NCBI GenBank assembly: GCA_041320515.1
Contig: JBGLNR010000001.1
Location: 578,405 to 642,404, forward strand
DNA from: Planctomycetota bacterium
Lineage (GTDB): Bacteria > Planctomycetota > PUPC01 > DSUN01
Direction: 5' to 3'
DNA length: 64,000 nt
A program made the translations under genes and the position numbers. Positions 3,166-49,680 of this stretch are shown here, in pieces. Numbering within the stretch: position 1 is the stretch's first letter; each line of letters opens with the position of its first letter. The notes beneath the pieces were generated by a model. It was not told the DNA's origin. It did not search any database and saw only the letters and a program-made list of their open reading frames with translations.

Positions 3166-3291
3166 GCAAGGCTCCTGTTCCTCCCGTGGGGCCGCGTACC
3201 AGGGCGCATATGGTGTCAGTTTCGCCGCGTCTTGTCAAAGGCCCTCCCTGTCTTGACACGCGCTCGGCAGAGGACTACCATCGAGAAGGCT

Positions 3292-3366
3292 CGTAGTGCG
3301 GGCTTCAGCCCGTATCTTCGCCGCCGCATCGGCAGCCCAAGATACGGCCTGAAGGCCGCACTACAA
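3292..3366. repeat. REP-like composite hairpin (GTAGTGCGGGCTTCAGCCCGTATCT … AGATACGGCCTGAAGGCCGCACTAC)
   Basis: Near-perfect 25-nt inverted arms, each with an internal GGGCT-TCA-AGCCC mini-palindrome. Member of a family seen at five sites in this window. Confidence 0.85.
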
Positions 3367-3408
3367 GCTCTGGCGTTCCGCTCCCGAGGAACTGGTAAAG
3401 GGTTCGAC

Positions 3409-5658
3409 ATGAGACTCAGCGTGTTGCTGGCGGCAGTTCTGCTGGCGAGCAGGGCCTGGGCGGCGGGGCTGCCCGTATCGGTGCCCATCGAGGGGATCAA
3501 GGAGCTGAACGCCGGGGCGTGGGGCGGCCCGGAGTTGGACGGGCAGCCCGCCTATCGCCTGGCGCTCAAGGGCAAGGATGCCTGGGTGCGCATTCCCGCC
3601 TGGTGGGGCGAGGGCGCTCGGCCACCACAGGGCGCACGCTATGTCGTCGAGGTCACGTTCAAGGATGTTGTGGAAGCCCCGATCGTTGCCGAGTCGTTCG
3701 GGGCGTTGGGCAGTTACTACGGCCGAAGCGAACTGCACCGCTTCGGGGGTGCGAACGACGGGCAGTGGAAGGTGGCTCAGGTGCCCGTGAGCTGGAACCT
3801 GCTGGTTGCGCCCAAGGGCACGAGGTCCGCCGAGCTTGCCTTCCGCGCGCCCGCCGACCTGCCCATTTCGCAGCTTGTCATCCGCGAGGCAAAGCTGCCC
3901 GAGGACCAGGCGCGTTACGAGGCCGAATCGCGGGCGTGGGTGGCGAAGGCCCAGGCGGCCAAGGCCACGGAGGCGGGGCAGATGAACGCCGACGAGACGG
4001 CCGTGGCGCCCGAGGGATACGTAGGGAGGGCCTTGGTGCCCTACGTCCGCGCCTACTACGACCGCATCTACCCGAACAGCGCGCCGCGCAAGGCGGAGGT
4101 CAGGGCGACCATCCACGTGCGCTTGGCCCGAAACGAGTTCGAGCCAGGCACCTTCGCCGTCTATGCCCAGGAGGATCTCAAGGGCGTGGACTTCGCGGTG
4201 TCGGAGCTGACTGGGCCGACGGGCACGCTGGCGTGCGAGATTCGCCGCCACACCATCGAGTACGCTCTGGAGCCGAAGGGGAAGGGCCTGGCCTGGGCGC
4301 CGCAGCGGCTCTGGCATGCATTCCCCGCGAGTATCAAGAAGGGGCAGTCGGCCTGGTTCTGGATAACCGTTCGCACCCTCGGCGAGGCGAGCCAGCCGGG
4401 GAAGTACCGCGGCAAAGTCATGATCGCCGCCGGGCAACAGACAGCCGAGTTGCCCATTCAGGTCGAGGTGCTGCCCATCACGCTCCTGACGATGGACGAG
4501 GCGGGGCTGCGGATGGGCGGCTGCGTGACCGGCCTCGCGACGGCAGGCGAGATGGCGACGATGCGCGAGCACAACCACAACATGGTCAACCTCTGGTTCG
4601 CAGGCGTCCAGCCCGAGATGAAGAAGGAGGGCGACCGAATCGTCCTCGACTTCCATTACCTCGACGACTGGATGAAGCTGGCCAGGGAGAACGGCCAGGG
4701 CGCCATCGTGTGGTTCCTCGGCGGCAACCCGAACGGCTTCCCGATGACCCTCTCGATGGAGCGCGACCTCTACGCCCTCGCCTGCGGCCCGCGAGACGAC
4801 TTCCTCAAGAAGGCCGGCTCCCAGGAGTTCCGCGGCAAGGTGCTGCCCGAGGTGCGGCCCCACTATGCACAGTGGCTCAAAGACGTGGTTGCGCACGCCA
4901 AGGAGAAGGGCTGGCCCGAGCTGATCTTCACCCCCTTCGACGAGCCGGCGAAGTGGGCCTATCCCGAGCCGCGGGCCGACAAGAGCTACAAGTTCGCCAT
5001 CGGCTGCGGCCCGTGGATTCGCGACCACTTCAAGGACGCTTGCGCCCTCATCCACGAGGCCGCGCCCGGCAGCAAGGTCTACGTCTCGATGCACCGCAAC
5101 TTCCACCGCAAGGTCCACGGGACCGACGGACGGGTCGGAGAGATCTTCATCCCCGACTGCGATGTCATCTGCACGAACGCGATTGACGAGGACAACGAAC
5201 TGGGGGACAAGGTGCGGAGCGCGGGCAAGGCATTCTGGCAGTACTCGGGCACCCGCAGCCGCCGATTCGGATTCGGCTTCTACTTCGGTGCCTGGGACTC
5301 CCGCGGCTCGCTCTGCTGGGCCTACAACTGGGGGCGGCGGTTCGACATCACGGAAGGCTCGAACTGGCAGTATGCCTGGTGCTCCCCCTTCGACACCATC
5401 CTCACGCCCGACTACGAGGAACTGCGCGAGGCCTGGGACGACCGCCGCTACATCGAGACCGCCAAGGCCGCGGCCAAGGCCGCGGGCAAGGACATCTCCG
5501 ACCTCCTCGCCCAGATACGCGCCGAGACCCTCGCCAACCAGGGCACGGGAGGCCGCGACCTCGTCAACGACTTCTGGGAGGAGGGCCGCCAGGCGAACAA
5601 GATGGACCAGTGGCGCGATCTGTTGGCGAAGAAGATCATTGAGCTGGCCCGCAGGTAG
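3409..5658 (+). CDS. secreted TIM-barrel protein, putative glycoside hydrolase (DUF4091-like)
   Basis: The long six-frame ORF (2773..5658) is antisense to the VOC gene at its 5' end. The true start is the ATG at 3409, followed by a signal peptide (MRLSVLLAAVLLASRAWAAG). The remainder is globular with many W/Y and a (beta/alpha)8-like pattern. Function is assigned by resemblance only. Confidence 0.6.
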   Translation: MRLSVLLAAVLLASRAWAAGLPVSVPIEGIKELNAGAWGGPELDGQPAYRLALKGKDAWVRIPAWWGEGARPPQGARYVVEVTFKDVVEAPIVAESFGALGSYYGRSELHRFGGANDGQWKVAQVPVSWNLLVAPKGTRSAELAFRAPADLPISQLVIREAKLPEDQARYEAESRAWVAKAQAAKATEAGQMNADETAVAPEGYVGRALVPYVRAYYDRIYPNSAPRKAEVRATIHVRLARNEFEPGTFAVYAQEDLKGVDFAVSELTGPTGTLACEIRRHTIEYALEPKGKGLAWAPQRLWHAFPASIKKGQSAWFWITVRTLGEASQPGKYRGKVMIAAGQQTAELPIQVEVLPITLLTMDEAGLRMGGCVTGLATAGEMATMREHNHNMVNLWFAGVQPEMKKEGDRIVLDFHYLDDWMKLARENGQGAIVWFLGGNPNGFPMTLSMERDLYALACGPRDDFLKKAGSQEFRGKVLPEVRPHYAQWLKDVVAHAKEKGWPELIFTPFDEPAKWAYPEPRADKSYKFAIGCGPWIRDHFKDACALIHEAAPGSKVYVSMHRNFHRKVHGTDGRVGEIFIPDCDVICTNAIDEDNELGDKVRSAGKAFWQYSGTRSRRFGFGFYFGAWDSRGSLCWAYNWGRRFDITEGSNWQYAWCSPFDTILTPDYEELREAWDDRRYIETAKAAAKAAGKDISDLLAQIRAETLANQGTGGRDLVNDFWEEGRQANKMDQWRDLLAKKIIELARR

Positions 5659-5748: not shown

Positions 5749-5967
5749 ATGAGCACTGCGGTGAAAACACCCGCGAAGCGGCCTGCTACGCGAAGCAGAG
5801 CGTTGGCCCCCACGCGAGGCAGCGCGCGATTGAAGAGGCCCATGACGGTGCGCGACTTGCTCGAGAGCGGCCTCCCCGGACTCTGGAAAGACCGGACCGA
5901 CATCGATGATACACTTGCCTTCTGCCGGCAGTTGCGGGCGAGAGCGCAGAACCGCGGAATGGGATAG
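5749..5967 (+). CDS. type II antitoxin (VapB-like) partner of the downstream PIN toxin
   Basis: 72-aa ORF whose stop lies 4 nt before the PIN gene start. The N-terminus is basic and the C-terminal helix (…DIDDTLAFCRQLRARAQNRG) is typical of small antitoxins. An internal start (MTVRDLL…) is possible. Confidence 0.55.
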   Translation: MSTAVKTPAKRPATRSRALAPTRGSARLKRPMTVRDLLESGLPGLWKDRTDIDDTLAFCRQLRARAQNRGMG

Positions 5968-5973
5968 CTCCGT

Positions 5974-6363
5974 ATGTTGGTCCTCGATGCCGACGTGATC
6001 GTGGACATCCTTCGATGGTATCCACCTGCCATGGCATGGCTGAAATCCCTTCCGGTAGAGGAGCAGGTGGTCGTGCCTGGGTTCGTTGCCATGGAGTTGC
6101 TGGACGGCGAACCCGACAAGCAACGCGTGGCTCAGATGCAGCGGAAGCTGGCCCCATTCACCGTTTACTGGCCCACTGCGGGCGACTGCGAGCGGGCGCT
6201 ACAGGTTTTTCCCCGCGCGAAGCTCTCCCACGGCACGGGCATCCTGGACGCGCTGATCGCCGAGACCGCGAAGGGTCTCGGCCTTCCGCTGCACACCTTC
6301 AATGTGAAGCACTACAGACCCATCCCTGGCCTCAGGACGGTTCAGCCCTATAGCAGGCCCTAG
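5974..6363 (+). CDS. vapC: PIN-domain ribonuclease toxin VapC
   Basis: 129-aa ORF. 'MLVLDADVIVDIL…' gives the N-terminal acidic PIN residue, and later acidic positions (…DALIAETA…) follow the PIN pattern. Classic two-gene TA layout. Confidence 0.8.
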   Translation: MLVLDADVIVDILRWYPPAMAWLKSLPVEEQVVVPGFVAMELLDGEPDKQRVAQMQRKLAPFTVYWPTAGDCERALQVFPRAKLSHGTGILDALIAETAKGLGLPLHTFNVKHYRPIPGLRTVQPYSRP

Positions 6364-7180
6364 TTCCGTCTTCGACCAGAAGCTCCACGCACCGCTTCCC
6401 GAGATTCTCGTCGAGCTTCAGCTTCATACCTTCGACTCCGCGAGGGGAATCTCGACGTATCGCTCCCGCGACATCTCCGCTCCATAGGTTATGTGGCCCC
6501 GCGGGCGTTCATCCTCCTATCATGCTAAGTCGGGCCCCGGTCCAGAAACTTTAGCACTTTTCTTCACAAAACCCATGACCATGCACGCTAAATACGTACA
6601 GAGGGAGAGGGGTCCAAACACCCCCCTCCCTTTCAGGGAGGGGCAGGGGGAGGGTGGGGGCCCGCCGCCGCCCCACGGCGCCAGGAATAGGGGCCATACT
6701 CGAGGAGGGCTCGGCGGCCCCACGTGGCCGCGCCCTGCCCTGCACGGCCTGAAGGCCGCACTCCAAACAGAGTCCATCGCCCCTGCTCGCTGAAGCCCAT
6801 TCAGCTTCTGTCGCGGATTCCTGCAGCGACAAGCGTCCCGCTTGCCGAAGGGCCGAGGAAAGCCGCAGAAGGCAGTCGGCCAGGCTGAAGTGGCCGAGTA
6901 AGCGGCCGAGCCGGGCGGCGACGCGTGCCAGCTTCCTCACGACAACGCCCCCGAGGCCGAACCTGCCCCGACGCCCTCGCGCGAACGCGGCGAAGTCAAC
7001 GGGCGCGAGGAACCCCCAATGTGACAGGCACGATGCTGCGGACGCCCTGCTCCCGCTCCAGTCGCGGAAAGCCCCGGGTCCGCCACGCCCAAGCCGTGCT
7101 TGGCCGCGTCTTCCGCAACGGCAACTAATCCCGTATGATGGCCCCCGAACTGACCACAGGCACCCCCAGGACGGCATTCC

Positions 7181-8572
7181 TCATCGGGCAGGTGACTTGA
7201 GCGATCCGACTGCTTTCCTCAACCGATTGGCGTAGGCGGCTTGCCAATCCGAGAGCTGCCTCATCTTCGCCTGCGTGTCCTTGACCAACCTGTTGAAGGC
7301 TGGGTGATCCTCATCCCTCCCAAAGACGATGACCTTCCCAACCAGGGTGTACGTACCGAACTTGCTCTCGAGAAGCTCGAAGACTGCGCGCACGCTTCCT
7401 AGGAAACCCCGCAAGTGAAGCATGTATGCTGTGTTGGCTTCAGAGGCCTCTTGCATTCCTTCACGCCATTGTGCAATCACAGCATCCAACCCGCCCCTCG
7501 GCAGGGACAACTCGCGCAGCCGCCTGTCTCCCTCAGAAGCCATTGCCAGCACCTTGACCCAGTGCTCCGATATGACCTTCTCGTAGTGGTCAAGCATCGC
7601 TAGCCTTCCTCTGATCCCTTCAAGGCTCTTGGGCGCGTCGTCGCTCAGCAAAGTGGCCCAGGGAACACGGTTCTGTTCCGTCTTCAGAGCGGCGTCAAGC
7701 TCCTCATAGCGGGATTCGAACCAACAGAAGAAGTCAAGAACCGGGCGGTACCTGCCGTAGTCAGACGGATTCCGGTTCCGGAAGTGCTGGTAACGGCCTT
7801 CGCTCGCTCCCTCGAAAAGGGCCGCAAAATCGGCTTGAAACATCCCCGCCACTTCGGCACCTTCGGCCTGGGCGAGGGCTTGCTCCAGTCGGGCGGCGTC
7901 AAGCTTCATCATGACCCCACCCACTGCCCAGCATGTAAACAAGAAGAAGACCACAGAGACGACTGCCAGCGTCTTGGTCGCCATTCGCCAGAGGCGTATC
8001 AGGGGCACCCTTGCCCGCCACCACGAAATGCACGAAGGCAATTCCAGGAGCACCCAGAACACCAAGCAGTGACCCAACACTGCGCCCAGCGCGGATGCCG
8101 ACGGGTGTGTGCGGTTCAGTGTCCGATTCAGATCGCAGTGTGCAGAATAGAGCGTGTGAAGAGCCAGCAAGGTCAACAGACAGGAGATCCACCGCAGGGT
8201 CAGGGCTCCCACGCGAATGCCCTTCGGCGCGAGCGTACTATCCCTTCTCCCCTCTGATGCGGGCAACCTTGACGATGTGTCTGGGGGAACAGTTTCTGTT
8301 CCGACTATCTGGCCACCATCGCGCGCCGAAGACTCCATAGCCATGCTCGTCACAGGTGCCGGGTGGCGCAGCGCGGCCGCGGCCGGGGGTGCGGGTTCCT
8401 TGGTGGGCAACGGCGAGGGCGACGTCCGCTGCCCTTCGCTCAGAGACGCCACACGGCGCTGCGCGTGAGGCGCGATCACGTCGCGCCGACAATTGGGGCA
8501 TGTGGCCGCCAGCCCCGCCCACTCGTCGGGCACGTCGAGCGATGCTCCGCACTGGCACTTGAATGTGATCAT
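7181..8572 (-). CDS. membrane protein with N-terminal MJ0042-type CXXC zinc ribbon, 3 predicted TM helices and a C-terminal cytoplasmic domain of unknown function
   Basis: 463-aa ORF. 'MITFKCQCGASLDVPDEWAGLAATCPNCRR' matches the MJ0042/zinc_ribbon_4-5 pattern. Hydrophobic segments fall at roughly aa 125-215. Paralogous N-termini occur at 8757..9386 and 24306..26168. Confidence 0.75.
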   Translation of the reverse strand: MITFKCQCGASLDVPDEWAGLAATCPNCRRDVIAPHAQRRVASLSEGQRTSPSPLPTKEPAPPAAAALRHPAPVTSMAMESSARDGGQIVGTETVPPDTSSRLPASEGRRDSTLAPKGIRVGALTLRWISCLLTLLALHTLYSAHCDLNRTLNRTHPSASALGAVLGHCLVFWVLLELPSCISWWRARVPLIRLWRMATKTLAVVSVVFFLFTCWAVGGVMMKLDAARLEQALAQAEGAEVAGMFQADFAALFEGASEGRYQHFRNRNPSDYGRYRPVLDFFCWFESRYEELDAALKTEQNRVPWATLLSDDAPKSLEGIRGRLAMLDHYEKVISEHWVKVLAMASEGDRRLRELSLPRGGLDAVIAQWREGMQEASEANTAYMLHLRGFLGSVRAVFELLESKFGTYTLVGKVIVFGRDEDHPAFNRLVKDTQAKMRQLSDWQAAYANRLRKAVGSLKSPAR

Positions 8573-8617
8573 CCCGCTCCCCCCAACGACCGTTCGGATT
8601 GCTGAGGGCGCATCGGC

Positions 8618-8646
8618 AGTATCGCGCTCCCGCCGCCGCTTGTCAA
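8618..8646 (-). promoter_or_regulatory. sigma70-like promoter TTGACA-N17-GATACT (minus strand) with a conserved 5'-UTR
   Basis: Reverse complement reads TTGACAagcggcggcgggagcgcGATACTgccgatgcgccctcagcaatccgaacggtcgttggggggagcgggATG. It is almost identical to the region upstream of the 8757..9386 paralog. Confidence 0.65.
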
Positions 8647-8756
8647 CCGCGCACCGACCAGAAGGGCAGCAGTCCGCGGTTGCTCCGAATCGAGGCAGGG
8701 GCAGTGCTGGTGCTTATCGAACTCCTCAGTTGGTGATCCGTCCTATGAAGCCGCGG

Positions 8757-9386
8757 TCATTCGGGTCCATATGTGTTCCTGACACGCTTAGACGCCCTGA
8801 AGTACAGCCACCAGATCACAAACCAGATCACCGAACCGAGGAGGGTCTTAGGCAATTCTGCCAGGAACGCGTCCCGAACTGTAGGAGGCAGGTCATGAGC
8901 CATCAGTGGTATGCTGCCGGCATGCAGCACACTCCCAAAGAGCCTGACCAGGAGGAACTGTCTTGCCAGCCGCCTCCCATTAGGGTTGCCCGCCCAAATC
9001 ATGCAGCCAATCGCAAATCCATAGAGAAGCAGGCCCCCGGTCACGATCACGTCAACTGCACAGATGTAGCCCAGGGCCGGATACGACTCGAGCGCCCCAG
9101 ACGACGCTACCTCTCTCCACTTCAGCAGATCAGGAAGTGTGGATAGGGGAGCCAGTACCGTTAAGCCAACGCAGAAGAACGCCAGCCAGCCGCCGACACC
9201 AGAGACCTCTGGCTTTGGGAGGGGCAACAGTGCCTTCTCGTCAATGGCCCCCCCGCTGACCGCTGTGTCCACACTTGCCTCGGATACAGAGCCTTTGCGT
9301 CCGCAGGAATAGCATCGGTGTTCACCTCCAGCGTACCCCTCGTCGATTTCGTAGCGCGCGCCGCACGGGCACTTGAACGTGATCAT
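8757..9386 (-). CDS. MJ0042-type zinc-ribbon membrane protein, short paralog (4 TM)
   Basis: 209-aa ORF. 'MITFKCPCGARYEIDEGYAGGEHRCYSCGRKG' is followed by a linker and four hydrophobic helices. Confidence 0.75.
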   Translation of the reverse strand: MITFKCPCGARYEIDEGYAGGEHRCYSCGRKGSVSEASVDTAVSGGAIDEKALLPLPKPEVSGVGGWLAFFCVGLTVLAPLSTLPDLLKWREVASSGALESYPALGYICAVDVIVTGGLLLYGFAIGCMIWAGNPNGRRLARQFLLVRLFGSVLHAGSIPLMAHDLPPTVRDAFLAELPKTLLGSVIWFVIWWLYFRASKRVRNTYGPE

Positions 9387-9431
9387 GCCGCTTCCCCCAA
9401 CGACCGTTCAGATTGCTGCGGGCGCGTCGGT

Positions 9432-9460
9432 AGTATCGCGCCCCGTCGCTCGAAAGTCAA
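9432..9460 (-). promoter_or_regulatory. sigma70-like promoter TTGACT-N17-GATACT (minus strand) with a conserved 5'-UTR
   Basis: Reverse complement reads TTGACTttcgagcgacggggcgcGATACTaccgacgcgcccgcagcaatctgaacggtcgttgggggaagcggcATG. It is a paralog of the 8618..8646 promoter. Confidence 0.65.
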
Positions 9461-9738
9461 GCCCCCACAACACCTGCAAGCCGTGGCGACCCTGTCCCTG
9501 GCGCTTGGAGCACACCACCCTCGTTCTCTGACTCGCTTGCCCCTTCGTCGCGGGGCATTGGGGCCGGGCTTCTCGAGCGTAGCACGTGGCCGAGCAAGGC
9601 GTCGAGCCGAGCGGCGACGCGGGCGAGGCTGGGCCTGCGCCGATGCTACCGCGCGAGAACGGAGAAGTCAAGGGGCGCGAGGAATAGGGGCCATACTCAT
9701 GCGCGGCTTGCCCCCTCCACGAGCCGACACGCCCCTCG

Positions 9739-11142
9739 TCACTTCTTGCGCTCCGGGCCTTTCTTCTTGGGCGGCGGGGCGGGGCTGTCGAAGAGGGGAG
9801 GGACAAGTTCCTTGTCCCAGGCCGCGTAGGCGGCGACGAGGCGCTTGAGGATGTCGGGGTGGGCATCGGCGACGTTGGCGGTCTCGCGCGGGTCGGCCTC
9901 CAGGTCGTAGAGCATGGGGTCGCCGAGGCCGGTCTTGACGATCTTCCAGCGGCCCTCGCGGACGGCGTAGCTTGTGCCGCCGCCGGTGCGCCAGAAGAGG
10001 CGCTCGTGGGGCGGCGTCGCCCTTTCGCCCGTCACGTGCGGGATGAGATTCACCCCGTCAATCTTGCGGTCGGCGGGCAGTTGCGCGCCAGCCACGGCCG
10101 ACGCAGTGGCGAAGAGGTCGAGGGAGATGACGGGGTGCGCGTAGTCCTTGCCCTCTGGCAGGCGGCCGCGCCACTGGGCGGCGAAGGGGACGCGGATGCC
10201 GCCCTCGTGGAGCGCGCCCTTGCCGCCGCGGAGGATGCCGTTCGTGGCGCCGTAGCGGGTGGGGCCGCCGTTGTCGCTCAGGAAGACGACGAGGGTGTCG
10301 TTCTCCAGCTTGACGTCGCGGAGCGTGGCCAGGAGCAGGCCGACCCCATCGTCCAGCGCGCTCATCATGGCGGCATAGGCGCGGCGGCTGGGGTCCTCGA
10401 TCCTGGCGAAGCGGGCGAGATACTTGTCGGGGGCCTCGAGCGGCGTGTGGGGCGCGTTGTAGGCGAGGTAGAGGAAGAACGGCTTGGCCGCGTGGCGGCG
10501 CACGAAGGCCGCGGCCTCGCGCGAAAAGGCGTCCGTCAGATACTCGGTCTCCACTACGGGCTGGCCGTTGCGCTCGATGGGGATGAGGTATTCGCGGGTC
10601 TCGCCGGCGGGATTGGCCTTGAAGTAGTTGTGCCCGCCGCCGACGAAGCCGAACTGCTCGTCGAAGCCGCGCTTGAGGGGGTGGAACTCGGGCGCGCCGC
10701 CGAGGTGCCACTTGCCCACGATGCCCGTCACGTAGCCCGCCTGCTTGAGCACTTGGGGCAGGGTCGTCTCGGTGAGGGGCAGGCCAGCCTTGCGGTCGGT
10801 GGCGTCGTAGCGTGGGTTGTTCTCGTGCCCGAAGCGCTGCTGGTAGCGTCCCGTCAGCAGGCCGGCCCGCGTGGGGCTGCAGAAGGGGTGCGACACCAAG
10901 CCGTTGGTGAAGCGCACCCCGTGCTTGGCGATGGAGTCGAGGTTTGGGGTCGGGATGTCCTCGCAGCCCATGAACCCCACGTCGCCCGAGCCCAGGTCGT
11001 CGGCGACGATGAAGATGATGTTGGGCTTGCGCCCCGCGGCCGCCTCGGCGCCCCATGCCGCCCCGACTCGGGAGGCGAGGAGTCCCGCGAGCCCTCCAAT
11101 GGCCGCCTCCACGAACTCGCGGCGGGTGCGACTCGGACTCAT
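9739..11142 (-). CDS. arylsulfatase (Cys-type sulfatase family) with Tat-like signal
   Basis: 467-aa ORF. 'IIFIVADDLG…CSPTRAGLLTGR' carries the C-x-P-x-R formylglycine motif. 'GKWHLG' is also present. The N-terminus (SRTRREFVEAAIGGLAG) looks like a twin-arginine signal. AAGGAGG Shine-Dalgarno lies 7 nt before the ATG. Confidence 0.9.
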   Translation of the reverse strand: MSPSRTRREFVEAAIGGLAGLLASRVGAAWGAEAAAGRKPNIIFIVADDLGSGDVGFMGCEDIPTPNLDSIAKHGVRFTNGLVSHPFCSPTRAGLLTGRYQQRFGHENNPRYDATDRKAGLPLTETTLPQVLKQAGYVTGIVGKWHLGGAPEFHPLKRGFDEQFGFVGGGHNYFKANPAGETREYLIPIERNGQPVVETEYLTDAFSREAAAFVRRHAAKPFFLYLAYNAPHTPLEAPDKYLARFARIEDPSRRAYAAMMSALDDGVGLLLATLRDVKLENDTLVVFLSDNGGPTRYGATNGILRGGKGALHEGGIRVPFAAQWRGRLPEGKDYAHPVISLDLFATASAVAGAQLPADRKIDGVNLIPHVTGERATPPHERLFWRTGGGTSYAVREGRWKIVKTGLGDPMLYDLEADPRETANVADAHPDILKRLVAAYAAWDKELVPPLFDSPAPPPKKKGPERKK

Positions 11143-11170
11143 CGTTCACCTCCTTGGCGCGCACCTGTCT

Positions 11171-11228
11171 GTAGTGCGGCCTTCAGGCCGTATCCTCGCG
11201 AGACGGGCTAAAGCCCGCACTACAAACT
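11171..11228. repeat. REP-like hairpin (GTAGTGCGGCCTTCAGGCCGTATCC … GGGCTAAAGCCCGCACTAC)
   Basis: Same family as 3292..3366. Lies between the stop of the lipoprotein gene and the start of the sulfatase gene, both on the minus strand. Confidence 0.8.
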
Positions 11229-18226: not shown

Positions 18227-18279
18227 TATTGCGTCTGCGAGGGGTTGACTTCCTCCATGTCCGTCTGGGGTACTGTGAC

Positions 18280-19650
18280 ATGCCGGGAGATAGCAAGCCT
18301 AGCGGGACCAGAGCGACCACGGCGATCCTGGAAATCTCGCAAGCCATAGTCGGGCCGGTCGGCCTCCAGGAACTCCTGGAGAGGGTTGTCAGGACCCTTG
18401 CTGAGCTGGCGAGTGCCGATGCGTGCAGCATCTGGCTGATTGATGCAGACAGGAAGGTCCGCATCAAGGCGGCCACAGGCTACCAGCAGCGCCTGTTGCC
18501 GACGTGCCCGGATTACGTCGCCGCGCTCAATGCAGGCAAACTCGATGACTACACCAAGGGTGCGAAGCTGCCTATCCCGGCGGAATATGAGCTGGGCGAA
18601 GGCATGACTGGCACAGTGGCGATGAATGGCGAAGCCGTCCGTACCACGGGACAGATTGAGCACCGCAAAGCGCACCCGCAGTGGAGAGGCAAGTATGACA
18701 GGGTGCAGTGGCCGCATGGCGGCGGAGAGTGCGTATCCTACGTTGCCATTCCCCTGAAGTTCACCGACCCGCTGTCTCGAGACCAGCGCGTCATCGGTGT
18801 TCTGAAGATCGAGAACAAGAGGGACCCAGACGGCACGCTCGCCAGAGCTTTCACAGCAGAAGATGAGGAAGTGATGACGATCCTCGCTAATGTCATCGCG
18901 GTGACGATTGAGAACCAGAGGTTGGCGGAAGAGCGGCGGAAGGAGGACCGGAAGCAAGCTGAAGACGTGTGGCGGTTGGTCTCTGCCCGCCTGGCGCACA
19001 AGATCGGCAACGAGAATTTCGCCGCGAAGGGGTTCCTGGACGACTTGAAGGGGTGGGTGGCACCGGAGGCTGCGAAGCTTCTGAATAGCCTCAGACAGTG
19101 CTACGATGCGATTGATCTGATCACTGGAGAGGCGAAACGCTTCTCCAGCGAACCTAAGATGAACAGACGGCTATGTCGGTTTGCGGAAGCCGTCGAGGCG
19201 GCGGTGCGAGGGTATCCAAACACGGCATGGGGGGCAGAACTGCAGTTCGAACACGAGGATAGCAAGAGGTTTAAGGACGAAGAGTTGTTGCGCGTGGAAC
19301 TTGACGAGGGCCAGATACGCCACGTCCTGATGGAACTCCTCGAGAACTCCCAGAGCTTCAAGCCACGAGATGCAAGGATAACGGTTCGCACTGGACGCGC
19401 ATCACGAGAGCTGACGGCTGGGTTCAGGCTCCAGGGCGAGAACGCGTTCATTGACTATCTTGACAACGGCCCAGGCGTGAAGGATAATATGAAGGAAGAG
19501 ATCTTCAAACCCTTTGTGTCCACCCGCCAGGGATCGGGTCTTGGGCTATCAATAGTCCGGCAGATTGTTGAGGCCCACGGCGGCAAGATAGCGGAGCGTG
19601 GGGAAGCTGGCACAGGGGCTCGGTTCCTCATCCTCTTCCCCCTCACTTGA
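18280..19650 (+). CDS. GAF-domain sensor histidine kinase
   Basis: GAF-like N-terminal half (…ACSIWLID…GMTGTVAMNGEAVR…GVLKIENK). The C-terminus has a HisKA H-box-like 'LAHKIGNENF' and an HATPase_c G-box 'GSGLGLSIVRQIVEAHGG'. An alternative upstream ATG exists at 18229. Confidence 0.8.
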   Translation: MPGDSKPSGTRATTAILEISQAIVGPVGLQELLERVVRTLAELASADACSIWLIDADRKVRIKAATGYQQRLLPTCPDYVAALNAGKLDDYTKGAKLPIPAEYELGEGMTGTVAMNGEAVRTTGQIEHRKAHPQWRGKYDRVQWPHGGGECVSYVAIPLKFTDPLSRDQRVIGVLKIENKRDPDGTLARAFTAEDEEVMTILANVIAVTIENQRLAEERRKEDRKQAEDVWRLVSARLAHKIGNENFAAKGFLDDLKGWVAPEAAKLLNSLRQCYDAIDLITGEAKRFSSEPKMNRRLCRFAEAVEAAVRGYPNTAWGAELQFEHEDSKRFKDEELLRVELDEGQIRHVLMELLENSQSFKPRDARITVRTGRASRELTAGFRLQGENAFIDYLDNGPGVKDNMKEEIFKPFVSTRQGSGLGLSIVRQIVEAHGGKIAERGEAGTGARFLILFPLT

Positions 19651-19663
19651 GTGAGGAATCGAC

Positions 19664-20287
19664 ATGGGTTCGAAAGTCCTGGTAGTTGACGACGAGCCTC
19701 GCGTGCGCGAGGCGCTACGGCTTCGGCTCGAGCACATGGGCTGCGAAGTCATCGAGGCGGACAGCCGAGCCAAGGCGGAAGAAGTTGTTTCGGGTCACAG
19801 ACCCGAAATTGGCCTTGTGATTCTGGACCTTCGCCTGGAGTCACTGTCAGAGGAAGATGGAAGCGAATCCGGTCTGCGGTTCTTGGAAGAGAGGCTGACA
19901 CTACAGATGATGTGCAGCGAGTGTGGTGTTGCCGAGTTCATGCCCCGGGTCATAGTTCTGACGTCGTACCCCAATTGGCCGAGCTGCCGGAAGGCGTTCC
20001 TTGCAGGAGTCTTCGACTACCTCGACAAGAATGACCCAGGCGTTTGGGACATCCTCCTGGAGGCGGTGAAGAACGCGCTTCGGCAGCCCTCTCTACGCAC
20101 CCTGTCGCTGAGGTGGATTGAGGACCACTTTGACGAAGTCCAGTCGAGGTACGGCGGAAGGATTCTGGCGCTCAGAGGCGAGGAGGTCGTGGCCGAAGGG
20201 CCGACGTTGGAGGAGGTGGGCCGCATCATGACAGAGAAGAGCCTGAGCCGCCAGGATTGCTTCCTTGTCCAGGTCCCGGAGTGCTAG
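19664..20287 (+). CDS. response regulator, REC domain with a C-terminal domain that is not an HTH
   Basis: 'KVLVVDDEP…' carries the phospho-acceptor Asp, 'LVILDLRL'. The C-terminal ~90 aa are not recognisable as a DNA-binding output. Gene follows the kinase by 13 nt. Confidence 0.8.
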   Translation: MGSKVLVVDDEPRVREALRLRLEHMGCEVIEADSRAKAEEVVSGHRPEIGLVILDLRLESLSEEDGSESGLRFLEERLTLQMMCSECGVAEFMPRVIVLTSYPNWPSCRKAFLAGVFDYLDKNDPGVWDILLEAVKNALRQPSLRTLSLRWIEDHFDEVQSRYGGRILALRGEEVVAEGPTLEEVGRIMTEKSLSRQDCFLVQVPEC

Positions 20288-24305: not shown

Positions 24306-26168
24306 TCACCCCCTGGCTTGCTGAATGACCAAACGCTGAATGCCCAGCAGGATGTCGGCGGTCTTCTTCTTGGGGACGTTCGTGCCTGTCGTGTCGAGCT
24401 GCTGGCCATGGCCCACATGGACAATGTTCGGCTGGGACCAGGTGCCCGGAGCGAACTCTCGGCTCGCGAAGTCCTCATAGAGGATCACGCCCGCCCCCGC
24501 CGGGCGCGTCGAGCCGCCGAGGTGGTAGTACAGCCCCTTGCCGCCAAATACGACGCAGTCCTTCGCGGAGCCGAAGACCGTGCAGTCAATGAGGCCGAGG
24601 ACACGCTCGCCCTCGGGCAGACGACACTGCGCCATTGCACTGCCCAGCTTCTTGGCCGGGATATCCGGCGCGACGAACAGGTCGCTCTGGGGGAGACACA
24701 CTCTCAGGAGACCGATGATCGCGTCGTCGAGGCCGGGCGGCCGGGGTGGCTCCCCAGGCCGAGGAGCAGGGCGAGCCATCGCGCCGCCTTCGGCCGGTCC
24801 CTGGCTCGCGGCCGGGGCGGCCCGCCGGTTCATCAGCTCCTTGAGGCACATCAGCATGTCCACCGCCTTATCCCTCGGGACACTCGAGCCGCTGATGTTC
24901 ATGGACTCGCCGCGGTCCATCTCGATCTGGCCTGCGATGAGCAGAGCGCCCACCTTGAACGTCCGGTCGGGGAACTCCCGGTAGGGAATCGAGTGGACTC
25001 CCCCCTCGAGATGATAGTGGAGCGCCTGGCTGCAGAACACAAGGCAGTTCTTTGCGGAACCGAAGCACGTGCAGTCGATGAGGGCGACGACGCCCTCCCC
25101 CGCGGGGACGCGGGCGGCTGCGCAGGCATTCGCCAGCTTCTTGGGCGGAATGTCGGGAGCCACGAACAGCCCTGCCTGCGGAAGGTAGCTCTTCAGGAGA
25201 TGGTGGACCGCGTGTTCCTCAGAAAGCGGGAGGAGTCCGCAGGAAGGGAGCGCGGCGAGTCGGGCTACCCGCTCGTTCCGCCCAGGGTCCACAGCCGGGG
25301 CGCTCCGCGCATCGGGCTGAGCCAGACAGGCAGGAACCGAGTCGAAGACGCGGCCCTCGTTGACCGCGCGGAACTGCTTCGCGTAGTTGCCGTTCTGAAA
25401 TGTCACGACGACGCAGTCTTGCTCGGTCTCCATGCCCAGGATGACCGTGGAGCCGACCTCCACGGAGTCGCCGGCCGCCAGGTGGCCCGATGCGTCGTGG
25501 CCGGTCCGGGCGCGGCATCCCGCGCAGACGGGCACGCTGAGGGTCACAGCAGTCGCCTGGGCCGCCCCCTCCCCTTGGGACGCCCCTGCGCCCGCTACCT
25601 CGGCCCCGACAGCCCCACCGACGATCTCCCCAGCAATGTCCCCGACCAGCCCGCCCGTCGCCGCGCCCACGACCATGCCGACGAGCCAGCCTGCTGCCTT
25701 CCTGCCTTTATTGCCCTTGTGCGGCCGCGGTGCAGGCGCCGGAGCCGATGTGGCGATGTCCCAGGCTAACTCCTCCGTCGGCCCCTCCACGAAGCACCCC
25801 ACGCACCGCCGGGGCCACAACATGGCCGCGGAGGCCCGGAAGACGACTCGAACGGGTGCCTGGCACCCCTCATCCGTCAGCCGCAACGGCCCCTGTTCCA
25901 CGGCTGCCCTGAGAAGGGGCGCCCTGCGCTCCATCGGTGTCGGCGTCACGACAACGGGCGGCAAGCGGGGTGGCGCTGGCGGCGGCCCCCTGCGCTCAGG
26001 CGGCGTCGGCCGCACGACAACCGGGGGTGGCTGGTACGGGGCTCTCGGCGTCGCATGGGCAGGCGCCCGCGTGAACTGCTGGCACACGGGGCACTTGAAC
26101 AGCTTCCCCGCGTGCTGATCCCCGGTCTGGAGAAGGCGACCGCACGTGCACCGGAACGTGATAGCCAT
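24306..26168 (-). CDS. MJ0042-type zinc-ribbon protein with Pro-rich linker, glycine-zipper TM segment and two tandem copies of an uncharacterised ~110-aa domain
   Basis: 'MAITFRCTCGRLLQTGDQHAGKLFKCPVCQQF'. 'GWLVGMVVGAATGGLVGDIAGEIVGGAVG'. Then '…LPQAGLFVAPDIPPKKLANACAAARVPAGEGVVALIDCTCFGSAKNCLVF…' is repeated as '…LPQSDLFVAPDIPAKKLGSAMAQCRLPEGERVLGLIDCTVFGSAKDCVVF…'. Confidence 0.75.
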   Translation of the reverse strand: MAITFRCTCGRLLQTGDQHAGKLFKCPVCQQFTRAPAHATPRAPYQPPPVVVRPTPPERRGPPPAPPRLPPVVVTPTPMERRAPLLRAAVEQGPLRLTDEGCQAPVRVVFRASAAMLWPRRCVGCFVEGPTEELAWDIATSAPAPAPRPHKGNKGRKAAGWLVGMVVGAATGGLVGDIAGEIVGGAVGAEVAGAGASQGEGAAQATAVTLSVPVCAGCRARTGHDASGHLAAGDSVEVGSTVILGMETEQDCVVVTFQNGNYAKQFRAVNEGRVFDSVPACLAQPDARSAPAVDPGRNERVARLAALPSCGLLPLSEEHAVHHLLKSYLPQAGLFVAPDIPPKKLANACAAARVPAGEGVVALIDCTCFGSAKNCLVFCSQALHYHLEGGVHSIPYREFPDRTFKVGALLIAGQIEMDRGESMNISGSSVPRDKAVDMLMCLKELMNRRAAPAASQGPAEGGAMARPAPRPGEPPRPPGLDDAIIGLLRVCLPQSDLFVAPDIPAKKLGSAMAQCRLPEGERVLGLIDCTVFGSAKDCVVFGGKGLYYHLGGSTRPAGAGVILYEDFASREFAPGTWSQPNIVHVGHGQQLDTTGTNVPKKKTADILLGIQRLVIQQARG

Positions 26169-26247: not shown

Positions 26248-26437
26248 GAACCCCGGCCCCGGCTCCCATCACCGGCCCAGCCGTGAGTTCACCCGCAGGC
26301 TGCCGCTAATGGCTAATGAAGATCTGGCCCCAATGGCGCCTAGAAGCCGCCGAGGCGTTTGAGTTCCTGGGGCTGTTCCTTGGGCTCCTGCGGGGGCGTG
26401 GACTTGGCCATGGCAGTTCCTCCTCGGGGTTTGTAGT

Positions 26438-26490
26438 GCGGGCTTCAGCCCGTAGGGGATACGGCCTGAGGGCCGCACTACAAGCACCAT
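26438..26490. repeat. REP-like hairpin (GTAGTGCGGGCTTCAGCCCGTAGGGGATACGGCCTGAGGGCCGCACTAC)
   Basis: Compact form of the REP family: about a 23-bp stem with a 4-nt loop. Confidence 0.85.
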
Positions 26491-36300: not shown

Positions 36301-36914
36301 CTCTGCACATTCGGACGCTTTTCCGCGCGGCGGTGCCAGGCCGCAACTTACCCGTGCTCCACCAAAGCCCCGCCCCGCAGCCCCTACAGGCTGTGGCTGC
36401 CCGCGGACGCACCACAACCCGCTGAGTTTTCCCAGTCTTCCCAGTCTTCCCGGTTCTCGGTGAGGCCCCCTGCCCCCAGCAGGTTGTGGATGCCTCCAGG
36501 GCGAACCACAAATTGTTGACTCGGCAGACTCGGCAGAGTCGGCAGGTTCGTGCGCCCCCTGGGGTCAGGTCTTCAGTATCAGAACTCAGATCACGAATTG
36601 CGTGGAACGCCTGGAAAGTGCGATTCCGCAAGTCTATGCTGCATAAGAGCTTACGTTACCACTAACACCAGAAAAGGGGGCGGTCGTAGTTGCCAATCCC
36701 TCGCCCCACCGACGCGAGGTCGGTGGGGGCGGGGAAGTCCGGCGGGCCCGGGGTGGTTGCCCGCGTCCCCGGCTATCTGGTCCCCGCTGCCCTCTTCCTC
36801 CTGGCCTCAGCGAGTGGAGTGCCTGCCGCCTCGCGCGACCTTTCGTTGAGAAGGGACATGAAGCGCTCGCTCTGGCCCAGAGCGGCGGCCTCGCGGTCGA
36901 AGTCATCAGCCGGC

Positions 36915-36989
36915 GGGAGAGTTCGTAGTGCGAGCTTCAGCCCGTATTGGGAGCCCAGGATACGGCCTGAAGGCCGCACTACGAACTTA
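36915..36989. repeat. REP-like hairpin (GTAGTGCGAGCTTCAGCCCGTAT … ATACGGCCTGAAGGCCGCACTAC)
   Basis: Same family as 3292..3366. Lies just 3' of the stop of the giant gene on the minus strand. Confidence 0.85.
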
Positions 36990-37010: not shown

Positions 37011-40000
37011 TCACCGCGGGCGCGGGGCGGTCTGGATCATGGAGACGAGCTGCTGCTTGATGTGCACGGCGACATCCAGGATGTCGCCGCCGGCGAAGCT
37101 CTGGAGCTTTTCCGAGGCCGCGTGGGGGTCGGTGGCGCCTTCCTTGACGATGGTGAGGACTTTCTCGAAGTACGCCTTGTCGGCGCTGCCGTCCGGCAGG
37201 TTGTCCACGATCTTGGTCTCCAGCTCCTTCTTGGTCGAGCGGAAGGCCTCCGCCTGCCCCTCGCGGGTGCCCTTGGAGAGGGCGTGGCGGACCTTGTTGA
37301 CGTTCACCTGGCCCGTGTGGTGGGCCAGTTGGGGGTTGAGCTGCGACATCGGGTCAATGCCCTGGGCGCGCAGGTCGTTGAGCTTCAGCACCACTTTGTC
37401 CAGGTATGCCTCTTCGTCCACGCTCGTGGTGCCGCGCCAGTCGGCTGCCTTCGCGGCGCGGCCGCCCGCCTTCTCGCTGAACGCCTTGCCGAGGCACTTG
37501 TTGAGGTCCTTCTGGAACTCCTGGATGTTCATCTCCGTGCCGCCCTTCTTGGGCGTCCAGCCTTCCTCCTTGACGCCGATGTCCTTGTCGAAGCCCACCT
37601 TCTTCTTGTTGGCGGAGTGGCGGAACTGCATGAGTTCGAAGTCGTTCCAGCCCATCTCCTTCATCAACTGCTTGGTGCGCGACACAACGGGCTTCTCGAG
37701 GAAGACCTCCAGGTTCTTGCTGTAGGACTGCTTGGCGGCCCCTGTGACTTTCGGCGACTGGAAGGCCATCTTGGCGGGGTAGCTGGTCTCAACCTGTGAC
37801 ATGGCCTCGACGAGGGCGCGGCCCTCGCGGGTCTTGGCCAGGGCCTCGGAGTTGGCGGCCAGGTACTTCTCCATCGTCTGGTTCGGCGGCTTCTTCTGGG
37901 AGGCCATTTCGATGAAGGCGTTGTTGGCCTGCTGGTAGTTGCGGACCAGGTTCTCGCCGTGCTGCTGGTCCTGCTTGAAGTTGGCGTCCTTGACGAACTC
38001 GCTCCAGGCCTTGACCTTGCCCGGCCCCGTGGAGGGCGCGACGGCCCGGTTCAGACGCGCCTGCGTCAGCCTGTTGGCGGACAGCTCGCAGCCCTTGCGC
38101 ATCATGAGTTGAAGCATGGCATGCTTGGCCGCGCCCGTGAGGCTGCCGCCCGGCTCCGAGCGGTAGCCGTCCATCGCCGAGATCGCGACGTCCACGGCGG
38201 CGTATTTGAAGCGCAGCCCGGTCGTGATGGCGCCCTTCATGCCGCCCTCGACGTAGCCGGTCCCGCAGCCGTAGCCGAAGGAGATCAGGCCGGGGGCATG
38301 GACCCACGCGGGATAGTTCAGCACCGCACCCGCCGTGGCGTAGGGGGCGACGACCATCATGGCCATGTCGCACCCGAACTTGATCTCCTCCAGCGTCGTG
38401 ATCGTGTCCATCGCCTCGGCCTCGCGCTGGAACGTCTGGCCCTGCACCTTGGCGAGCATGGCGCTGGTCATCTGCTTCAGCTTCTTGGTGTCGCGCCCCA
38501 TGATCGCCTTGGCGTCGAGCTTCTCGCTGGCCCACTCGCGGTAGGTCTTCGCATCCGCGTCGTCGAGCATAGCGATGAGGTTGTGGAGGTTGCTCACGCC
38601 GCGGTCGAAGGACTTCTGGAGCTGGGCCACGCGCCGGGCGTTGTCGGCGATGATCTTCGCCTTCACCACGTCCCGGTGGCAGTCCTCGATGACTTGCTGG
38701 AACTGCACCTCCTCGGCTATCGAGCGGCGGTGGACGAGCGTGCCTGTCTCGAGCGAGGCGATCATGTCCTCGGCCCGGCTGATCTCAGTCAGGTTGTCAA
38801 TGATGCGGTTCCGCAGCTCCTTGGCCCTCGTCTCATCCCGCTCGGTCCCCAACTGGGCTCGAATGCGCTCGATGGTCTCCCGCATGAACTTGATGTCCTT
38901 GCGGAGCTGGTCGGTGCGGGCGGACTTCGGGTCGTCGGGGATCGTTGCCACTGGCTCCGCGTCCTCGTCCTTGAGGGCGATGGGCTGCTTCTGCCCGCTG
39001 GGGTCGAAGGCGTAGATGTAGCAGGTGTAGCCGTGCAGGTACGTCCCCCTTGCGAACACCACGACGGCCGCGATGGGGAAGTCTGCCCCGACGACTTTCA
39101 TTGCGTGCCCCGTGTGCGTCTCCCGGATGGGGAGTGCCTTCTTCTCCTCGGCGGTATCCACGATTACCGTCTCATCTGGCCGGCCCCTCATCGGCTCGTA
39201 GTCCCCGACGAGTTCGGAGCAGGGGCGCATCGCCCCCCGGCTCTCGATCACGGCCAGGCCGAGATCCGCGAATTTACACTTGCCCATCTTTTCCACAATA
39301 GCCAGTTCGTCGGGTCGGTAGAAGTAGATGCGGTACCTCATCGGGTGCCACACGGCCAGCCAGTCCCCGTCCGGCTCGGTGATCTCGATGGCGGACTTCA
39401 CCTGCACGCGGTTGAGGGTCGCCGGGTCGAGGCGGCCGGGCGGCGGGGTCCACGAGCACTTGAGGACGCAGGAGGCGGTCACTTTCTCGGGGTTCTTCTC
39501 GTCGTCGTGCTTCTCGAAGCGCTCGGTCATGACGGTGCCGCCCGCGCGCACGCTTGCGTGCGGTTCGACGAAGGTGCGGGAGCCAACCATCACGTAGCTG
39601 CCCTGGTTCGCGGCGACGGGCACGACGGAGACGTAGGCCGCGGCCTCGCCGACAACGCGGTTGGTCTCCGTGTCGCGCACGCTGAGCTTCACCTGGTACT
39701 TGCCGAGGTTGGGGTACTTGTGGGCAACGGTGTCGGTCGCGGTCCTCGCCTCACCGGCCCGGTCGCCGTAGCTCCACTCGTAGCTGGGCTTCTTCGGCGC
39801 GTCCTTCACGACGGGCATGAAGCGGCACACCCCGCCCGGCAGCACCTCCTGCCTGAGGGGCAGGATGCGCACGGTGGTGGCCCGCTTGAGGTAGGCAGCG
39901 AACACCTTCTGGCGCTTGTGGCGCGCGGCATAGGGGTTGGGCGGATCGCCCAGCTCCTCGATCTCCCTGCCGAGTTCCTCGAGGCGCTTGCGGAGCGAGG

Positions 40001-41432: not shown

Positions 41433-41512
41433 CTCGACCTCCTGACCGGCTGGGTGACGGGTCACCCGCCCTCATCCCGTCCTCTTCTGGGCACGCGGGA
41501 CCGCGCCGCGGG

Positions 41513-46339: not shown

Positions 46340-46984
46340 GTCACCTCTTCTCCCCTCCCAGACGCACACACCCACGACCCACAAGCAGAAGCAGACCGCC
46401 CTCCGCGATCCTAACACTTTCCTGTGCCGGTTGCCATCGGAAATGCACGGGAGCCAGGCGGGCGGTCACAGCAGGTTCCAGATCAGCTCCGCCAGTTTTT
46501 CGGGGTCGTGGCGCAGGAGGTCCTGCTTTTCCCACAGGATGCGCTTGTGGTCGAGGTTCTCGACGAGGTCGTCGAGGATGATCTGGACGCGGTGGGCGCC
46601 GAGCTGGTCGTCTATGCGGACGAGTTCGGCCGCCTCGCCGTGGTAGCGCGCGAGGATGGCCATCCTCGGCCTGCCCCCCACCATCTCCATCACCGACAAG
46701 AGCGGCGTGGCCGGCATCGCCGCCTGGCTCGGCCTCGAACTCCGCGAGCAAGGCGTCCAGATCGCCAAGGACCACCCTGGCGTCATCGCCATCAAGGACT
46801 CCGTAGACGCCCAATTCGCCTCCGGCCGCCTCACCGCCATGTCCCGCGAAGAACTCCTCCTCCTCGCCCGCAAACACTTGCCCGAACACTTCGGCCAGTG
46901 AGCGCGCGCAGTCAAAGAGGGCAGAGGGCAGACGGCAGAGGGCAGAGGGGGAGGTCGAAGGAAAGAGCCGGCCCGCGGAACACG

Positions 46985-47065
46985 CGAGATGCCGCGAAAC
47001 GGAAGCGGCGGTAGGGCGTGCAAACCTGCACGCGGAACGCGAGACCCGAAACGCGAAACCGATTC
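46985..47065. repeat. GC-rich dispersed repeat (…CGGTAGGGCGTGCAAACCTGCACGCGGAACGCGAGACCCGAAACGCGAAACC…), inverted relative to copies at 49500..49680
   Basis: Its reverse complement matches GTTTCGCG…TTCCGCGTGCAGGTTTGCACGCCCTACCG found twice at 49530-49680. Contains a CGTGCA-ggtt-TGCACG hairpin. Confidence 0.8.
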
Positions 47066-49499: not shown

Positions 49500-49680
49500 A
49501 GCGTAGGGACGAGAGGTGTTTCGGGTTTCGCGTGGTTTCGCATGTTCCGCGGGCGGTTCCGCGTGCAGGTTTGCACGCCCTACCGGCTGCGTGAGGAAGA
49601 GGGTTCCGCGTTGTTTCGCGTGTTCCGCGGGCGGTTCGGCGTGCAGGTTTGCACGCCCTACCGGTTCCGCCATCCGTGCC
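49500..49680. repeat. two direct copies of the GC-rich repeat (GTGTTCCGCGGGCGGTTCCGCGTGCAGGTTTGCACGCCCTACCGG), plus CATCCGTGS x3
   Basis: Read directly. Inverted with respect to the copy at 46985..47065. Together they bracket the beta-propeller gene. Confidence 0.8.

Follow-up and report, generated by a model that had tools for sequence, protein, structure and literature searches.

Two neighboring genes, here called A and B, lie on the minus strand of a 64 kb window (the whole stretch of DNA that was analyzed, from contig JBGLNR010000001.1 of a GC-rich Planctomycetota bacterium), where gene B (9386-8757) is followed in the direction of transcription by gene A (8572-7181). Each encodes a membrane protein headed by a short zinc ribbon, and the two share a promoter-like site, a leader and the beginning of the coding sequence. 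An earlier, purely sequence-based reading of this region (the original prediction) had described them as duplicated MJ0042 zinc-ribbon membrane-protein genes with a conserved promoter and 5' untranslated region (UTR). Both open reading frames (ORFs) exist as predicted at 7181-8572 and 8757-9386, starting with MITFKCQCGA (gene A) and MITFKCPCGA (gene B). The features on which the comparison is based are the following:

7181..8572, minus strand: gene A, an ORF of 463 aa
8468..8572, minus strand: ribbon head of gene A, codons 1-35, C6-x-C8 ... C25-x2-C28, from HMMER matches and the family alignment
8573..8617, minus strand: leader of gene A, 45 nt from the -10 hexamer to the ATG, with a predicted 5' UTR of ~39 nt and a G-run ribosome-binding region
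8618..8646, minus strand: predicted promoter of gene A, TTGACA-N17-GATACT, matching the consensus at 10/12 positions
8757..9386, minus strand: gene B, an ORF of 209 aa
9282..9386, minus strand: ribbon head of gene B, codons 1-35, C6-x-C8 ... C25-x2-C28, from sequence comparison and the family alignment
9387..9431, minus strand: leader of gene B, of the same length and register as the leader of gene A
9432..9460, minus strand: predicted promoter of gene B, TTGACT-N17-GATACT, matching the consensus at 9/12 positions

The predicted near-identity of the upstream regions was borne out by alignment, with 81% identity over 111 nt between 8544-8654 and 9358-9468, and 90.7% over the 54 nt of a core block (8574-8627 and 9388-9441). 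A 25-nt pattern from the leader matches the window twice, where 0.00 matches are expected, and the two copies are 814 nt apart on the same strand. One leader position that had been given as variable between T and C is really T or G. Compared in fixed register from the ATG, the two upstream regions need no indel back to the -35 hexamer, and their identity changes from segment to segment:

Far upstream: 24% identical
15 nt ahead of the -35 hexamer: 40% identical
-35 hexamer: 5/6 identical
Spacer: 9/17 identical, conserved in the 3' half only
-10 hexamer: 6/6 identical
Leader: 39/45 identical, no indels
Codons 1-11: 26/33 identical
Codons 12-35: 30/72 identical (42%)
Past codon 35: random

Four-fold degenerate sites in codons for the same residue differ between the copies in 5/6 cases, as compared with 6/45 positions of the leader (Fisher p = 0.001), and the differing sites include those of T3, G9 and A10, which are all three such sites within 30 nt of the ATG. 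Neutral positions adjoining the leader have thus changed more than the leader itself, which argues for purifying selection rather than fresh copying; from this comparison, the leader and the core promoter are probably both under such selection. The ribbons appear to be old paralogues kept alike at the protein level, since their synonymous sites differ while the residues are kept. A simple recent segmental duplication of one gene, which the original prediction had named as the alternative, does not fit this pattern: identity does not extend beyond the core promoter, leader and opening 10 codons, and the adjacent synonymous sites are saturated.

A consensus scan of positions 6300-9800 (3.5 kb) returned three sigma70-type promoter-like sites where 0.4 would be expected, and every one of them lies on the minus strand. 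They coincide with those predicted, at 8646-8618 and 9460-9432 ahead of genes A and B, and at 9671-9643 (TTGACT-17-TAGCAT) further upstream. Predicted transcription starts are near 8611 for gene A, near 9425 for gene B and near 9636 for the third site. The leader of gene A also contains an upstream ORF of 14 codons (8571-8612, minus strand; ATG CGC CCT ... GGA TGA), the ATG of which lies at about the predicted transcription start and the TGA of which overlaps the main ATG (ATGA). It was rejected as a shared leader feature, being present in gene A only; gene B has ACG for this ATG.

Beyond the head, the two proteins differ. Their similarity in BLASTP is confined to residues 1-60 (35% identity, E 7e-07), with none in the remainder, and a hydropathy scan agrees with this search in supporting the predicted combination of transmembrane (TM) helices with unrelated C-termini. 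Gene A encodes the ribbon head (residues 1-35), a low-complexity linker (~37-116), three TM helices (~121-141, 158-176 and 202-220) and a helical C-terminal domain. Its single-sequence AlphaFold model is poor (predicted local distance difference test, pLDDT, 47.5), with helices beyond residue 117, and a fold search was not supportable. Searched with HMMER against 1.84 billion representatives, the body of gene A matched only itself and a metagenomic fragment of 77 aa (P0028, matching residues 387-461); it is an orphan domain of three TM helices plus a helical part. Three 53-aa cluster members (P0024, P0026 and P0027), at first taken for strain variants of gene A, share no similarity with the window, and their grouping is a clustering artefact.

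Gene B joins its ribbon head (residues 1-35) to a four-TM DUF2569 body (residues 62-206), with TM segments at 61-79, 108-126, 144-162 and 173-191. The match of this body to PF10754 (DUF2569) is full-length (profile positions 2-142 of 143; E 3e-12, 47.6 bits against a cut-off of 26.5), and the protein resembles the DUF2569 inner-membrane proteins in keeping the motifs GGWL.FFCVGL and W.YF..S.RV.NTY and in its four-helix bundle, which in an alignment-based model reaches a pLDDT >90 from residue 80 (81 overall). No solved fold in the PDB matched this model at E <= 0.001. It differs from the family in having a zinc-ribbon head: most of the 20 homologues of the body (31-50% identity) have other N-terminal heads, such as GYF_2 or extra TM helices, and two bear other ribbon types. 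DUF2569 is not known to have a signaling role; no useful literature was found on DUF2569, MJ0042 or the sample accessions.

It should be noted for annotation that the deposited forms of both proteins, recorded on a 5.97-Mb contig, are shorter and omit the zinc-ribbon heads: P0001 (NCBI source, 171 aa) is gene B read from an internal GTG, and P0022 (NCBI source, 267 aa) is gene A read from a methionine inside TM3. These starts are probably mis-annotated. The longer frames are better supported because the ribbon is conserved at the amino acid level with synonymous changes between the copies, because it has many relatives in other organisms, and because the placement of the promoters fits and a G-rich ribosome-binding region lies directly 5' of the ATG.

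The assignment of the heads to an MJ0042-type CXXC ribbon did not hold. In both, the first knuckle is C-x-C (Cys6, Cys8), with the second CxxC ~16 residues past it, and neither A nor B reaches any curated cut-off: for PF13717, gene B scores 15.0 bits against a cut-off of 30.3 and gene A has no match, and TIGR02098 was matched neither by the full proteins at E <= 1 nor by the head of A at E <= 0.01. Besides the protein itself and P0028, gene A has 47 other HMMER matches, all of which cover the ribbon only. The family alignment has four invariant cysteines and a consensus of approximately h-I-x-F-x-C-x-C-G ... A-G ... C-P-x-C ... P; in the relatives, the ribbon is N-terminal or in tandem and leads into a low-complexity linker, with hydrophobic membrane-like segments after it in many cases. 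The first knuckle is C-x-C in 58 and CxxC in 38 among 96 relative ribbons. At E <= 0.01, 11 of 65 relative ribbons match TIGR02098 and 20 match TIGR02605, and some of the CxxC relatives exceed the MJ0042 cut-off (e.g., P0031 with 34.4 bits, against 20.9). The best relative of solved structure is the LysW-type ribbon 5k2m_E (E 3e-4). With the MJ0042, FmdB, LysW and RpoP ribbons (TIGR02098, PF13717/PF13719 and TIGR02605), the heads share a module of ~35 residues, two zinc knuckles with an A-G pair between them, the N-terminal position and the low-complexity linker that follows; they differ in the first knuckle, which is C-x-C-G and not CxxC in A, in B and in a third gene, C. We therefore class the ribbon as a generic one, which is akin to the MJ0042 model but does not formally belong to it.

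This third ribbon-headed gene lies further along the window:

24306-26168, minus strand: gene C, 620 aa, starting MAITFRCTCG..., with a C7-x-C9 first knuckle and a second CxxC

In its C-terminal half, gene C has a pair of repeats matching BnzA, a candidate anti-phage defense protein (PADLOC model, E 2.4e-18). No defense family was matched by A or B.

The idea of a modular cassette that serves a family of such genes found no support in the search for further copies. The leader is present in two copies only in the window, and gene C has its own promoter (TTGACA-16-TATAAT) and a leader unrelated to that of A and B. A profile built from the two copies (nhmmer) found nothing else in the 64 kb but a marginal match (E 0.054), most of which is accounted for by the beginning of the gene C coding sequence. 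Exact-core scans gave 8 matches among GTDB representative genomes, 28 among JGI metagenomes and 2 among viral contigs, all of them chance matches with unrelated flanks, so the leader core is not found in these three collections; the ITFKC-type ribbon genes nearest to A and B from other samples (L039 and L040) have different upstream sequences. As far as the window and these collections show, the A/B leader belongs to a 5' module that was duplicated locally, a rather ordinary feature, and is not a regulatory element of wide occurrence.

Paralogous genes with a duplicated 5' regulatory and head-domain module are a known kind of thing, of which A and B are a new instance. The explanation that we favor, at about an even chance of being right, is that they form a compositionally atypical two-gene block in which a shared module was duplicated long ago, the leader has been selected and expression is coordinate. 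Each gene would then be a fusion of the common 5' module, comprising the sigma70-type core promoter, the leader of ~39-45 nt and the four-cysteine ribbon head, to a different membrane body. The duplication of the module would have been local and ancient; after it, the ribbon would have diverged save for the zinc ligands and a few structural residues, and the hexamers, the leader and the first ten codons would have been held near-constant by purifying selection. Both genes would be transcribed from equivalent promoters and controlled through the common leader, so that the A and B membrane proteins would be made coordinately. The leader itself may act as the site of a trans-acting factor, as a 5' hairpin pairing with the G-rich ribosome-binding region, or as both.

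Folding of the leaders bears on the last point. In isolation, both are predicted to form a hairpin of CCC[U/G]CAGC with GUUGGGGG, which covers the G-run at -12 to -8; in gene A, a possible occluding hairpin would pair the C-rich 5' arm CCCUCAGC with GUUGGGGG around the loop AAUCCGAACGGUC. This hairpin of gene A persists when 30 nt of coding sequence are added, with the Shine-Dalgarno (SD) region unpaired at a probability of ~0.24 and no temperature response between 20 and 55 C in silico. A leader of ~39 nt in which a 5'-proximal C-rich arm can pair with the G-run near the start is reminiscent of SD-pairing leaders such as RNA thermometers and translational-repression hairpins. It is unlike them in that the fold is not significantly stable, shows no covariation, is lost in gene B with coding sequence and has no match in Rfam.

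A number of observations weigh against a selected leader of this kind. The argument is drawn from two copies only, and the case for selection from six four-fold sites; the leader and codons 1-10 are both ~13% diverged, as a conversion tract of ~90 nt would also give. No diverged orthologous locus was found, the contig of a metagenome-assembled genome (MAG) and a Logan contig being 99.95-100% identical to the window. The fold energies of -16.2 (A) and -17.1 (B) kcal/mol are no better than those of shuffled sequences (z -0.77 and -1.19), and when 30 nt of coding sequence are added to the leader of gene B, other folds displace its hairpin and leave the SD region unpaired with a probability of 0.73 at 37 C. 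The sole substitution in the stem (U to G, giving a G.G mismatch in B) breaks a pair and is not compensatory, and no dyad of the repressor-operator type is evident in the leader. Rfam 15 gave no match at the gathering score in the whole window, and none at E <= 1 in 6300-9800. A riboregulator, for which the original prediction had suggested folding the UTR, therefore finds no support, with Rfam empty, energies like those of shuffled sequences and a disruptive change in the stem. What is conserved is the sequence of the leader rather than a demonstrable structure, so a protein or small-RNA site fits at least as well as a self-contained riboregulator.

The gene pair is flanked by further repeats, which we designate R modules:

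9586..9698, minus strand: module R, upstream of gene B, holding TTGACT-N17-TAGCAT (9671-9643)
6890..7012, minus strand: module R', a copy of R downstream of gene A (nhmmer E 1.1e-05)
6677..6701, minus strand: module R'', a lone copy of the 25-nt head of R, 24/25 identical

R and R' are alike in two blocks, of ~80% over 61 nt and 83% over 42 nt, and the 25-nt head of R reads GAGTATGGCCCCTATTCCTSGCGCC. As compared with R, module R' lacks the first 14 nt, has an insertion of ~21 nt and has its -10 hexamer destroyed. The flanking modules in the original prediction are a real repeat, with a promoter-like site in the 9671-9643 copy; the R' copy is no longer promoter-like. Fold z-scores of R and R' range from -0.6 to +1.0 on both strands, with no significant structure, and the modules were rejected as structured RNA or attC sites, having no long hairpins on folding. 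A search of viral contigs with R gave no matches.

Bracketed by R and R', genes A and B adjoin a vapBC pair (5749-6363) beside a strain-variable junction. Contig JBFZBU010000643.1 of MAG GCA_041308325.1 matches the window at 99.95% identity from 10754 to 6494, beyond which the two diverge. One ORF with an AGGAGG ribosome-binding site (ATGAACGCCCGCGGGGCC...; 4262-4301 of locus L009) carries on past the junction in the MAG; in the window, it ends after 7 codons and is followed by different DNA with vapBC, which marks a strain-variable insertion point. The GC content at third codon positions (GC3) is 0.72 in gene A and 0.67 in gene B, against 0.85-0.95 in neighboring genes, and the overall GC content falls to 57-60% in the bodies of both. 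A GAF histidine kinase and response regulator pair (18229-20287, plus strand) also has a low GC3 (0.71-0.73), so that A and B are not alone in their atypical composition. The scanned neighbors encode a sulfatase, a WbsX-like protein, VapBC, a pyrroloquinoline quinone (PQQ) propeller, a TIM-barrel protein, the GAF histidine kinase, the response regulator and several proteins without a family match.

An origin as integron cassettes was considered. The closest homologue of the gene B body (P0002, 50% identity) is the first cassette beside an integron-type integrase, and A and B are small, co-oriented, compositionally atypical and next to a toxin-antitoxin pair. The locus of P0002 (L048, 3479-10789; JGI Ga0209810_1001139) is a chromosomal integron with an integrase of Phage_int_SAM_4 and Phage_integrase domains and about ten attC sites of ~95 nt (CCTAAC...GTTAGG), and its other cassettes include HicAB, a glyoxalase and ScoMcrA_N. 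Typical integron cassettes lack their own promoters, whereas A and B have theirs, and the idea was rejected: a scan of the window for RYYYAAC...GTTRRRY patterns with folding, which recovered the L048 control, gave no attC candidates, and there is no integrase. Likewise rejected was a template and variable repeat like that of diversity-generating retroelements, as the differences between A and B are not adenine-specific and there is no reverse transcriptase among the scanned neighbors. No plasmid in PLSDB was matched by A or B in tblastn. The pair seems to belong to a small variable region that may have been acquired, and is not recognizable as a mobile element.

The conservation of the leader could also have arisen through history without function. 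Gene conversion or partial duplication would have copied a block of ~90 nt (-57 to +30) from one older ribbon paralogue to another, the block would have drifted by ~13% since, and the leader would carry only a promoter and a ribosome-binding site. We regard this as possible but not probable. The divergence is fairly even, at 6/45 in the leader and 4/30 in codons 1-10, the copies lie on the same strand at a distance of 814 nt in a locus rich in other local duplications (R, R' and R''), neither the window nor the public collections searched hold more copies of the leader, and an RNA element has no structural or covariation support. Set against this are the four-fold sites inside the block, all three of which differ, for which we infer a probability of ~0.002-0.02 at ~13% neutral divergence, and the flanks, which can hardly be aligned at all (24% identity upstream, 42% in codons 12-35) and would leave little homology to start or resolve conversion. 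Moreover, on its 5' side the block ends within the spacer of the promoter, with the -35 hexamer conserved separately further out, a pattern that looks like selection on functional elements.

Alternatively, the promoter-leader block, the R modules or both might be a dispersed promoter-carrying repeat that landed before two ribbon genes. Such an origin would suit the three full or partial copies of R within 3 kb, the other short repeats in the genome (REP-like palindromes at 3282, 11160, 26422 and 36914) and the strain-variable neighborhood, with the MAG contig diverging at 6494. It is unlikely, given that neither the leader block nor R was found elsewhere in the window (nhmmer, relaxed thresholds), that neither has terminal inverted repeats or significant structure, that the public collections hold no true exact-core leader matches, and that the block enters the coding sequence in frame and in the same register in A and B, which fits gene duplication and not insertion. 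We give still less credence to the suggestion of the original prediction that A and B are zinc-binding anti-sigma or signaling proteins with a dedicated regulatory cassette, which seems very improbable. The cytoplasmic zinc-binding head, linker and TM helices do loosely resemble membrane anti-sigma factors, but no zf-HC2 or other anti-sigma family was found in Pfam, NCBIfam or PADLOC (zf-HC2 in Pfam being unmatched by the A and B proteins at E <= 0.1 and by the heads alone at E <= 10). The HxxxCxxC motif is missing, with no histidine four residues ahead of either CxxC (LAATCPNC in A, GEHRCYSC in B), there is no sigma factor gene among the scanned neighbors, the body of B is a DUF2569 domain, and the ribbon is generic and found on many unrelated bodies.

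Returning to an anciently duplicated module with a selected leader, a bolder form of it would make the block from -10 to +30 (the 54-nt core) a previously undescribed, lineage-specific cis-regulatory leader, placing a small set of ribbon-headed membrane proteins under one trans-acting factor; we think this improbable. That factor might be the ribbon heads themselves, binding their own mRNA or DNA and so autoregulating the paralogue pair, and the source genome might hold further copies of the leader. If the leader is truly regulatory, the locus would be a compact case of a promoter, a leader and an N-terminal domain traveling as one evolutionary unit onto different bodies, and would give a handle on the regulation of ribbon-headed membrane proteins, which are very common and uncharacterized. 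Otherwise, it is an ordinary gene pair of a variable region without known function.

Other repeats were seen in the window. The REP-like (repetitive extragenic palindromic) units (GTAGTGCGGSCTTCAGSCCGTAT) are paired and intergenic, at 3282-3369, 11160-11228, 26422-26486 and 36914-36987, and a degenerate copy lies in the spacer downstream of gene A (~6740-6775). A perfect inverted repeat of 30 nt (47009-47038 and 49556-49585) brackets ~2.5 kb that include tandem coding repeats of 117 nt (39 aa; 47364-48731); near it are a third copy of 97% identity (49634-49663) and a direct repeat of 69 nt (49523-49669). The segment 47009-49585 could be invertible or mobile. Two giant paralogous ORFs stand in tandem on the minus strand (37011-41465 and 41513-46417; 1484 and 1634 aa), with a nucleotide identity of 81-87% over long stretches.

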